Below are positions 11,804 to 12,777 of a stretch of DNA of 53,373 nucleotides, piece after piece. Made by a program: the position numbers and the translations under genes. Every line of letters begins with the position of its first letter. The first letter of the stretch is position 1. The notes under the pieces are model-generated. The model was given only the letters and a program-made list of their open reading frames with translations. It was not told the DNA's origin and did no database searches. This stretch comes from Clostridiales bacterium UBA1248. Lineage in GTDB: Bacteria > Bacillota > Clostridia > Oscillospirales > CAG-272. The DNA lies in contig DBWC01000015.1 in assembly GCA_002308615.1 (NCBI GenBank), forward strand, positions 1 through 53,373, given 5' to 3'.

Positions 11804-11815
11804 TCCCTGTTCATT

Positions 11816-11893
11816 GGGATATAGCCAAGTCGGTTAAGGCACAAGACTTTGACTCTTGCACTGCGCTGGTTCGAATCCAGCTATCCCAGCCAG
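11816..11893 (+). tRNA. tRNA-Gln (anticodon UUG), with encoded CCA
   Basis: Acceptor stem is TGGGATA/TATCCCA. Anticodon stem is CAAGA/TCTTG with loop CTTTGAC. The T-arm is GCTGG-TTCGAAT-CCAGC, the discriminator is G, and CCA follows. The sequence resembles Firmicutes tRNA-Gln. Confidence 0.9.
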
Positions 11894-11894
11894 A

Positions 11895-11922
11895 AAACCC
11901 GATGCGAAAGCATCGGGTTTTC
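11895..11922 (+). terminator. Rho-independent terminator after tRNA-Gln
   Basis: AAAACCCGATGC-GAAA-GCATCGGGTTTT. Confidence 0.8.
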
Positions 11923-11928
11923 AACTAA

Positions 11929-12092
11929 ATCCGTCCTTACGGACGGGTTAAATCCACTGCGTGGATGAAATCGCTGCGCGATGAAATCCGCACTGACGTG
12001 CGGGATAAAGAGGACGGATTTAATTTCATCTGTCGCCATAGCGACAGATTTCATCCGGGCTTTGCCCGGATTTCACCGCGGCACCGCCGCGA
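11929..12092. repeat. Array of seven short near-perfect hairpins, mostly ATC...GAT, joined by GAA linkers in the left half and TTC linkers in the right half
   Basis: Hairpins lie at 11929-11950, 11953-11967, 11971-11983, 11987-12007, 12029-12050, 12054-12072 and 12078-12092. ATGAAAT recurs on the left and its complement ATTTCAT on the right. Confidence 0.75.
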
Positions 12093-12203
12093 TTTCATTT
12101 TTTGTTATTTCAAGCGTTTATGTTTATCGCTGAAGATCAAACTCAACTAATTCAAAATTTTTATGCGTTTTGCGCTTTTGCGATTTAGGGCGTTAAGCAC
12201 AGA

Positions 12204-12233
12204 AAAATCCCCGTCAATTGACGGGGATTTTTC
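12204..12233. terminator. Perfect 30-nt palindrome; bidirectional terminator-like hairpin
   Basis: AAAAATCCCCGTCAATTGACGGGGATTTTT, with an A-run and a T-run flanking a 10-bp stem. Confidence 0.6.
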
Positions 12234-12444
12234 AATGAAGTCGCCCTGCCCTCGGGGTCCCCGAAACGAGCTTGCCGAGTTTTGGGGAACGGGCCGACGG
12301 GGCTAATGAAGACGCTTCGCTAATGAAGAAATGAAGTCGCTCACTGCGTTCGCTAATTAAGGAACAGGGGGCGACTTCGCTTCATTAGGCGGCAAAGCCG
12401 CCGTCTTCATTAGGGCGTTAGCCCGTCTTCATTTCTTCATTAAC
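12234..12444. repeat. Mosaic palindromic repeat, copy B (forward CTAATGAAG blocks, then reverse CTTCATTAG blocks, separated by GC-rich hairpins)
   Basis: Forward blocks lie at 12234-12241, 12304-12312, 12321-12329, 12330-12337 and 12354-12362 (CTAATTAAG). Reverse blocks lie at 12381-12389, 12406-12414, 12428-12434 and 12436-12444. It is homologous to 96-183 plus 468-520 in inverted orientation. Confidence 0.7.
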
Positions 12445-12472
12445 TCCCATTCTCTCATTCCTCACATTATTT

Positions 12473-12501
12473 TGACTTAGTCACAATTATGTGCTATCAT
12501 A
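12473..12501 (+). promoter_or_regulatory. Sigma-A-type promoter with no annotated gene downstream
   Basis: TTGACT at 12473-12478, a 17-nt spacer, then TGc-TATCAT at 12493-12501. Confidence 0.45.
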
Positions 12502-12777
12502 AGATAAACACGCAGGGCGTCGGAACTGTCTGCGTACCTTGCAACGATGAAAAGTCACATTGCAGCAGAAAACCGCAGAACAGCTTGAAGAATATGTCGA
12601 AGTGTACGTTGTTTCAAAAGATTTCAACTGGGTGTATATGAAAACGCACGAGGGTGACTGCTGCGGACCGTATTTTATGAAGATATGATTTTTTTACAGT
12701 GGAAGATTAAGCCGATTTAAAACGTCCGGCATCCCCGCCTTCGCAATTGAGCGGAAGTCTTTAGTCACGTAATTCTA

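Follow-up and report, generated by a model that had tools for sequence, protein, structure and literature searches.

The Gut-1 motif (RF01706) has been filed as a probable small RNA (sRNA) and rated 'certainly RNA' from covariation, and was described from human-gut metagenomes and from no sequenced organism (Weinberg et al. 2010, Genome Biol 11:R31, PMC2864571). The Rfam model is 77 nucleotides (nt) long and is annotated as an sRNA without known function found in the human gut only. No later papers that discuss Gut-1 were found in the literature searched. Here we examine a hairpin array that lies behind a tRNA-Gln gene in a stretch of 53,373 nt (the window; contig DBWC01000015.1) of the metagenome-assembled genome (MAG) of Clostridiales bacterium UBA1248. 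The array had been noticed in an earlier annotation made from the letters of the window (the sequence-only reading), which took it to resemble no known motif. The array is mirrored and approximately 180 nt long, and the Gut-1 model covers half of it. It shares with Gut-1 at least three variable hairpins joined by (G/A)UGAAAU and the occurrence in gut Clostridia, and its left half passes the gathering score of the family.

Several other described systems have features in common with these arrays. BOX elements of Streptococcus pneumoniae, and the repetitive extragenic palindromes (REPs) and bacterial interspersed mosaic elements (BIMEs) of enterobacteria, are dispersed and modular intergenic mosaics with a variable number of units, with terminal modules that pair and with a location near the 3' ends of genes. 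Here, in contrast, the 7-nt linker is constant and the palindromes vary, there is no REP-associated tyrosine transposase (RAYT), and the full copies carry a specific small protein gene. Two further systems are analogous in the way they work only. As TRAP does at the trp leader and HutP at the hut leader, an oligomeric ring could read four to five short words in single-stranded RNA upstream of a gene; the fold of the protein is different here, the words are of 7 nt and are spaced by hairpins, and the binding is a proposal. The Omega protein of pSM19035 and the ParG-type operators provide the second analogy, in which 7-bp words, direct and inverted, stand beside a promoter and are read cooperatively by a small protein. 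Some clades described below have contiguous heptads as these operators do. Omega differs in being a ribbon-helix-helix protein that reads contiguous double-stranded DNA heptads without hairpin spacers.

The proteins of 23S rRNA intervening sequences (IVS) ride within stable-RNA operons. Like Avd of the diversity-generating retroelements (DGRs) they belong to the PF05635/TIGR02436 family (PDB 2RLD, 2GSC, 4DWL), as does the protein linked to the arrays. To our knowledge this large family has no known function outside DGRs. Unlike in DGRs, no reverse transcriptase and no template or variable repeat (TR/VR) lies beside the array-linked genes. No hairpin-word array for Avd or IVS proteins is described in the literature searched. 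PF05635 has been reported to be homologous to DGR Avd (PMC10053308).

Beyond the content of the Rfam entry, the Gut-1 arrays are multi-copy, are closed by a helix that covaries and come with a terminator-like hairpin attached. They occur in rumen and other animal-gut MAGs, have sister arrays with other words, and are linked to PF05635 genes. Four features are absent from the literature searched: the full mirrored layout and its closing helix, the existence of several word dialects, the polymorphism at the tRNA site and the tracking of word and protein. No paper found there ties Gut-1 or PF05635 to hairpin-word arrays. On balance we favor the reading that the array of the window is a 'solo' copy, without the gene, of an element that is modular and multi-copy in Clostridia of gut and rumen and the heptamer of which would be read by a protein of the element itself.

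Structure and spread of the Gut-1 arrays

The tRNA-Gln gene and the repeat unit that follows it are made up as follows.

11815-11892, + strand: tRNA-Gln (UUG), found by ARAGORN (Rfam tRNA, 65.2 bits); the repeat unit begins one base past its CCA end
11893-11922: terminator-like hairpin T1, GAAAACCCGATGC-GAAA-GCATCGGGTTTTC, with symmetric A and T tracts and a 13-nt perfect inverted repeat; a putative terminator
11923-12007, + strand: first half of the array and + strand Gut-1 copy; L0-X (AACTAAATCCGTCC), then H1 to H4 joined in order by GTTAAAT, ATGAAAT and ATGAAAT
11931-11946: hairpin H1, CCGTCC-TTAC-GGACGG
11954-11964: hairpin H2 of the left half
11972-11980: hairpin H3 of the left half
11988-12003: hairpin H4, last of the left half
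12008-12022: centre of the array, in which GGACGGATTT (12012-12021) pairs with AAATCCGTCC (11927-11936) to form a closing helix around the first half
12023-12098, - strand: second half of the array and inverted Gut-1 copy, in the order ATTTCAT-H5-ATTTCAT-H6-ATTTCAC-H7-ATTTCAT
12030-12047: hairpin H5, first of the right half
12055-12069: hairpin H6 of the right half
12077-12091: hairpin H7, last of the right half
12099-12201: AT-rich tail of the repeat unit (103 nt), ending in GTTAAGCACA

A search with the Rfam covariance models matched Gut-1 on the + strand at 11922-11992 (57.5 bits, E 8e-11), above the gathering score of 50 bits, and on the - strand at 12018-12100 (46.6 bits, E 5e-8), under it. 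All three stems and all four UGAAAU linkers are present in the cmscan alignment of the left half. The order of the model (UGAAAU, hairpin, GUGAAAU, hairpin, GUGAAAU, hairpin, UGAAAU) is exactly the grammar that the sequence-only reading had written down, and its statement that the array matched nothing known does not stand. The array consists of two mirror-image copies of the catalogued Gut-1 motif, and the hairpin-plus-UGAAAU motif itself is not new.

The seven perfect hairpins between 11931 and 12091 are read directly from the sequence. They are real, mirror-organised and non-random, as had been claimed: the minimum free energy (MFE) of the array is approximately -103 kcal/mol on both strands, compared with -61 +/- 4.6 for 200 shuffles (z of -9.2 and -9.6). 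The MFE folds of both strands include the closing helix, behind which a repeat search finds a long-range inverted repeat (15 nt, 93%). This pairing of the first hairpin region with the central spacer had been proposed before; the complementarity was right and the coordinates were one base too high. The constant ATC...GAT stem boundary also described then is peculiar to the ATGAAAT sub-family, in which the AT of the linker lengthens the stem, and is not a feature of the canonical family, the word of which is GTGAAAT. The array is neither a simple terminator array nor a CRISPR array, as the same reading had said, and consists of mirrored 7-nt repeats with palindromic spacers. The absence of U-tracts that was put forward for this is not quite right, as the ATTTCATTTTTT that follows H7 scores as terminator-like and the 13-bp A-tract/T-tract hairpin at 11893-11922 lies ahead of the array. 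CRISPR was rejected from the array itself, for its 7-nt repeats and its palindromic spacers of 9-18 nt, with no search for cas genes.

Open reading frames (ORFs) of 57-61 amino acids (aa) span the array. Protein coding was ruled out because homologous copies differ by 2-nt indels in hairpins (H2 has 11 nt in one and 9 nt in another), which break any frame; the ORFs were not run against protein databases.

The full plan of an array is approximately four forward words with hairpin spacers, a centre, and approximately four inverted words with different hairpins. L0-X stands just before the first word and pairs with the centre (X'-L'0). Of 48 composite arrays drawn from many genomes, 34 have at least 10 nt of perfect complementarity in the closing helix, against a median of 6 for mismatched pairings. 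At least eight distinct closing-helix sequences (CCACCC, CCGTCC, TTGCCC, AAATCC, TTCGCC and others) occur among these 48. The closing helix is a covarying long-range helix that lies outside the Rfam model.

The terminator-like hairpin, the array and the AT-rich tail make up a repeat unit of 309 nt (11893-12201). This unit recurs in near-identical form in the same genome behind tRNA-Leu (contig C8) and twice in tandem behind tRNA-Asn (contig C84), with the T1 hairpin sequence present at each of these places. The AT-rich tail is common to the C8 and C84 copies and, in part, to a sister genome (G010). A promoter scan of the tail found no promoter-like site on either strand. The stems change between copies of the unit yet remain paired, and the words are constant; H2, for example, is CCAC-TGC-GTGG, CAC-TTC-GTG, CAC-TCC-GTG or CCATC-TTC-GATGG. 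The unit is bracketed by a 7-nt direct repeat, CAGAAAA (11891-11897 and 12200-12206), which may be the shared start of consecutive modules rather than a target-site duplication. For the unit as a possible miniature inverted-repeat transposable element (MITE), no transposase partner was found, and the sole linked gene is that of a four-helix-bundle protein. A few stem types of the terminator hairpin (e.g. AAAAAAGCACGC...GCGTGCTTTTTT) reappear at other loci, as if they were exchangeable cassettes.

Arrays of this kind are also present at other places in this genome and in its relatives. The MAG has 29 RF01706 matches, six of them above the cut-off and many at contig ends. A scan of the whole MAG for at least three identical 6-mers separated by hairpins gave 23 half-arrays, and none in the shuffled genome. 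Among 41 relatives, 11 lack Gut-1 and 30 have between 1 and 62 copies; within the genus, each of 12 genomes (this MAG and 11 others) carries 7-62 Gut-1 copies. The same grammar is used in this genome with other heptamers (GTGAAGT, ATGATAT, GCTAAAT, AATGAAG, ATGAATT, TTATGAT and TCGATAT). The idea that such arrays always follow tRNA genes does not hold, as most follow the terminators of protein genes, but an enrichment is seen: four of 33 array loci in the MAG sit 30-40 nt behind a tRNA, and only 16 tRNAs are detected in the MAG.

A pattern scan of species-representative genomes, which gives examples and not a census and takes in chance matches and unrelated tandem-heptamer matches in other phyla, extends this distribution. 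Among the matches listed, the canonical composite is found in numerous uncultured Clostridia (Oscillospiraceae, Ruminococcaceae, Acutalibacteraceae and Christensenellaceae) from the guts of ruminants, horses, chickens and humans, where it very often comes immediately after a tRNA gene with its terminator-like hairpin. GTGAAAT-plus-hairpin arrays were also listed from MAGs of Akkermansia and Akkermansiaceae (L065, L070, L127). In a listed Chlorobi MAG (L090) a PF05635-like ORF lies 42 nt from a GTGAAAT pattern. The association of array and gene may extend past the Clostridia. A phage or plasmid origin of the array was rejected, as blastn of 11893-12460 gave no match in 50,697 phage and 72,556 plasmid records.

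Array words and four-helix-bundle genes

Among the ORFs that flank the arrays, the same small gene (MAESKLR..LS.DFA...) was seen right after several of them. The array-linked proteins are of approximately 120 aa and belong to TIGR02436/PF05635, the Avd/23S-rRNA-IVS family. Among solved structures, 2RLD (E 3.5e-28) and 2GSC come nearest, and both contain five chains. A PF05635 gene is present in 24 of the 30 Gut-1-positive relatives and in one of the 11 negative ones (Fisher p 6e-5). With one genome per genus the figures are 16 of 19 and 1 of 11 (p 9e-5, Spearman rho 0.85).

The two are also adjacent. Within 420 nt upstream of 24 of 30 sampled PF05635 genes there is a mirrored array of words and hairpins, a count that includes one locus cut by a contig end with one word visible and two with one half clearly present. 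The usual layout is four forward words and then four inverted ones. Five of the other six genes have tandem heptamers without hairpins, and one has nothing upstream. Among the listed GTGAAAT-pattern loci of public genomes, 10 of 120 have a PF05635-type gene within 150 nt. Contiguous tandem heptamers without hairpin spacers precede the genes of some clades (L047 in G006:C152, L055 in G011:C20, L210, L211 and L208; also L189 and L215), either as TTTTCAC/TCTTCAC followed by inverted GTGAATA/GTGAAGA or as TGCAGAA/TGCAAAA; therefore the heptamer and not the hairpin is the common denominator. A further arrangement is seen at C65:8400-9500, where a four-helix-bundle gene lies between CAYATCGAK arrays, a complete mirrored one before it and another copy of the first half behind it.

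Words differ between genes in step with the protein tree, on which 18 word labels require 17 changes, the minimum possible; the mean for shuffled labels is 26.5 and none of 200 shuffles is as low. GCTAAAT (six rows) and GTGAAAT (four rows) each mark one clade that spans several families, and related proteins bear related words (AATGATG and GTGATGT; GTGAATT and TGAATTG). In the sister genome G006 the protein behind the array homologous to that of the window is a chimera that joins approximately 38 N-terminal residues typical of the GTGAAAT clade to a C-terminal part like that of AATGAAG-clade proteins, and its word is TGAAAT. All of the approximately eight words of an array stay identical as the intervening stems turn over. 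Since the words are identical within an array, the stems differ and the words switch together with the protein clade, one common reader seems likelier than pairwise pairing of RNA; this is the strongest argument for such a reader. The association with four-helix-bundle genes lends indirect support to the earlier supposition that a protein reads the linkers.

A complete element runs from a terminator-like hairpin, often right after a tRNA gene, through approximately four units of 7-nt word plus variable perfect hairpin to the back-pairing centre, and on through approximately four inverted units to a promoter, or directly to a ribosome-binding site, and the ~120-aa four-helix-bundle gene. In the mechanism we propose, the invariant heptamer would be the word that the oligomeric protein of the element recognises. 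The hairpins would be spacers, free in sequence and required to pair, that display the words single-stranded at a fixed spacing, most likely in the RNA leader of + sense. Binding of the protein to its own leader or operator would then be autoregulatory, in a TRAP-like wrap-around manner. Whatever present-day function they may retain, solo arrays such as that of the window would be relics or decoys after gene loss.

The composition of the stems bears on whether the arrays act as RNA or as DNA. The stems are almost purely Watson-Crick (926 pairs), with approximately 1% G.U. First-half stems have four internal mismatches against 271 pairs and are uninformative on strand. Second-half stems, read in the direction that the upstream gene and the four-helix-bundle gene share, have 38 purine-purine mismatches and one pyrimidine-pyrimidine mismatch. 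One hairpin type that recurs in six word families, YGAGC-loop-GCGAR with its tandem G.A/A.G pairs, accounts for nearly all of them. It was seen at L031, L033, L034, L036, L104, L190, L196, L197, L199, L200, L203 and L213, always on the strand co-directional with the downstream gene, and may be a specific structural or protein-binding motif. First-half hairpins have TNC triloops and second-half hairpins G(N)NA loops, so that each half is 'well formed' when read 5' to 3' outward from the centre. In approximately half of the genes, those of the GCTAAAT and TGAAAT clades included, the ATG lies 14-58 nt past the last word and no promoter is recognisable in between; there the second half must be part of the mRNA leader. 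These observations give moderate support to a second half that acts single-stranded and in the sense of the gene, presumably as RNA.

Several findings weigh against a word read by the element's own protein, or against its being read in RNA. In the other half of the genes a good promoter begins -3 to +50 nt past the last word. The array is then outside the mRNA of the gene, as one would expect of a DNA operator more than of an RNA leader, and an operator role may be the alternative; a double-stranded DNA operator leaves the hairpins unexplained. Word and 5' part of the gene are physically linked, and as they are neighbors both the clade tracking and the chimera could be explained by co-inheritance alone. 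Arrays also occur without any PF05635 gene. One sister genome (G010; 90% completeness) has 22 matches and no gene, and G001 and G004 are likewise. The ATGAAAT array of the window contains degenerate words (ACTAAAT, GTTAAAT and GATAAAG). No cognate gene for either word of the window (ATGAAAT and AATGAAG) was found in this 79%-complete MAG.

A tblastn search with 30 four-helix-bundle proteins found no coding remnant in the window. In the rest of the MAG it found two genes, one on contig C126 with a GCTAAAT array and one on C65 with a CAYATCGAK array. Because the window holds no four-helix-bundle remnant and its second array keeps a promoter alone, we regard the window copy as a gene-less derivative.

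Modules behind the tRNA-Gln gene

The window stacks two gene-less modules behind tRNA-Gln, with the words ATGAAAT and AATGAAG. The second of them begins where the 309-nt unit ends and has the following parts.

12202-12233: terminator-like hairpin T2, a 16-nt perfect palindrome that opens the next module; the stem sequence at this site differs in sister species
12234-12441: second mirrored array, word AATGAAG/CTTCATT, with a mini-element of approximately 45 nt (12249-12293) nested in the loop of its first hairpin
12472-12500, + strand: promoter TTGACT-17-TATCAT from the promoter scan, its gene missing; its homologue in G003 is the promoter of an AATGAAG-type four-helix-bundle gene

The ATGAA core that the first array was said to share with repeats approximately 140 nt downstream is indeed common to both, the downstream repeats being the AATGAAG array with the same grammar. 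The orthologues of this second array in G003, G004, G005 and G009 come directly after tRNA-Gln. The region 12202-12502 aligns end to end with the upstream region of the AATGAAG-type gene of G003, promoter included, and the homology ends at TATCATA. The promoter at 12472-12500 is therefore a leftover of the promoter of that gene. Past it lies unrelated sequence with short ORFs.

The flank formed by the upstream gene and tRNA-Gln was located in 11 genomes of the genus. What follows the tRNA differs between them.

G003, G004, G005 and G009: a terminator-like hairpin, then the AATGAAG array at once; no Gut-1 unit
G010: the Gut-1 unit; no AATGAAG array
G001 and G002: short AATGAAG remnants
G008: a GTGAAGT array, with a four-helix-bundle gene 15 nt on
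G006: tandem heptamers and a four-helix-bundle gene

The hairpin stem directly after tRNA-Gln differs in every species, and the tRNA and the array that follows are conserved (G000, G003, G004, G005 and G009; L042, L044, L045, L051 and L052). The sequence-only reading would have taken hypervariability without conserved hairpin boundaries as a sign of junk. The site is hypervariable between species, but the linkers and the pairing of the hairpins are conserved. Judged by these differences and by the CAGAAAA brackets, the 3' end of tRNA-Gln is a hot spot for the gain, stacking and loss of modules.

The homologue of the first array in G006 (L203) has 79% identity over 228 nt, which span the 3' end of a tRNA, the terminator-like hairpin and most of the array. 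A four-helix-bundle gene lies 25 nt on from it, and an AATGAAG array is 0.8 kb further, behind the terminator of the next gene.

The mini-element in the second array is a copy of a separate small repeat of approximately 45-55 nt, (A)GGGGTTCCCCG - short hairpin - YGGGGGTTCMCG. Sites are at 12249-12293 and ~44671 of the window and at C84:19300, C65:8359 and 8973, C136:3854 and C61:11417. Approximately 50 strand-wise pattern matches occur in the MAG, several copies being counted on both strands, so that distinct copies are fewer. The repeat resides within hairpin loops of the arrays. Its copy in the second array interrupts GCCCC-TTC-GGGGC, a hairpin that is whole in G004 and G009, where the mini-element is absent, and at the C84 copy the loop GTAA is duplicated on both flanks. 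The repeat looks like a loop-targeting mini-insertion element.

Competing explanations and what the arrays may mean

The alternative that fares best, and which we still regard as unlikely, is a REP/BIME- or BOX-like selfish or structural repeat that piles up behind terminators and is at most a barrier to exonucleases or transcription, the four-helix-bundle gene being a fellow tenant of safe sites. The arrays are dispersed, multi-copy and modular with units in both orientations; they show insertion/absence polymorphism and tandem stacking, host other small repeats in their hairpin loops, lie in many cases at contig ends, and persist without any four-helix-bundle gene, all of which this account would expect. 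It is harder to reconcile with REPs conserving their palindrome where here the palindromes vary and the linker is conserved, and with a shared site preference hardly explaining why the word follows the protein tree with the minimum of changes and why arrays stand upstream of 29 of 30 genes. The transposase of such repeats is missing as well: a search for Y1/RAYT (PF01797) in the own genome and the 11 other genomes of the genus, all of them Gut-1-bearing, gave no match (0 of 12). A REP/BIME system with RAYT is thus set aside, as there is neither PF01797 nor a conserved palindrome with a fixed 5' tetranucleotide, and the 7-nt linker is the sole constant.

Less likely again is a stand-alone, trans-acting sRNA encoded by each array, with three hairpins and UGAAAU linkers and transcribed toward the symmetric terminator-like hairpin, to which the four-helix-bundle genes would be irrelevant. 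Such an sRNA would account for the match to the covariance model, for stems maintained by compensatory change between copies, for the covarying closing helix and for the rating of Gut-1 as 'certainly RNA' by covariation (Weinberg et al. 2010, PMC2864571), and the hairpin at one end of the array is a possible stop for a - strand transcript. Yet 20-60 copies per genome, patchy among relatives, are atypical of an sRNA gene, the tail has no promoter-like site on either strand, and the stems are nearly all Watson-Crick with approximately 1% G.U. Many sister arrays use other words, and the identity of the words within an array and their tracking of the adjacent protein clade would be left unexplained.

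A self-pairing 'ladder', in which left words pair with right words in one transcript or in extruded DNA to form a rod of 7-bp helices and four-way junctions with no protein, is very improbable: the words of the two sides are exact complements in matching numbers (approximately 4 + 4) and the only G-starting left word of the window (L1) faces the only C-ending right word (L'3) in rod register, but that match is not kept in the two C84 copies and so is not counted as evidence, thermodynamic folding favors local hairpins and the closing helix over word-word pairing, rod pairing does not demand identical words on one side, and five gene-linked arrays are tandem heptamers without hairpins.

Other known systems were also considered. 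A DGR with Avd, reverse transcriptase and TR/VR was not found, the single RVT_1 match of the MAG being on C115, away from the four-helix-bundle genes on C126 and C65. Type III toxin-antitoxin and known defence systems do not apply, as the protein is PF05635/TIGR02436 and not an endoribonuclease of the ToxN/AbiQ type and no PADLOC family was matched.

For the window alone the consequence of the element reading is modest: its array is an ordinary gene-less copy, and the 'orphan' promoter at 12472-12500 is accounted for as well. A wider proposal is put forward tentatively, and we would not yet call it probable. Gut-1 and its sister arrays may be the cognate nucleic-acid partners of TIGR02436/Avd-like proteins, with a private 7-nt word for each clade that is set by the N-terminal ~38 residues and displayed four to five times with hairpins of free sequence in between, the whole forming a self-contained element that settles after terminators and tRNA genes and, on loss of the gene, leaves a solo array. 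Since 2010 Gut-1 has stood as an orphan motif, and PF05635 is an orphan of its own. Because there are many array 'dialects', each before its own four-helix-bundle clade, and because tRNA 3' ends are hot spots at which modules arrive, stack up and lose their gene, the two orphans are joined into one question that is open to direct test. If the proposal is true, it would define a new class of programmable word-reading ring proteins, and would give a function to an orphan Rfam family and to a large family of 'hypothetical' proteins that includes the 23S rRNA IVS proteins.

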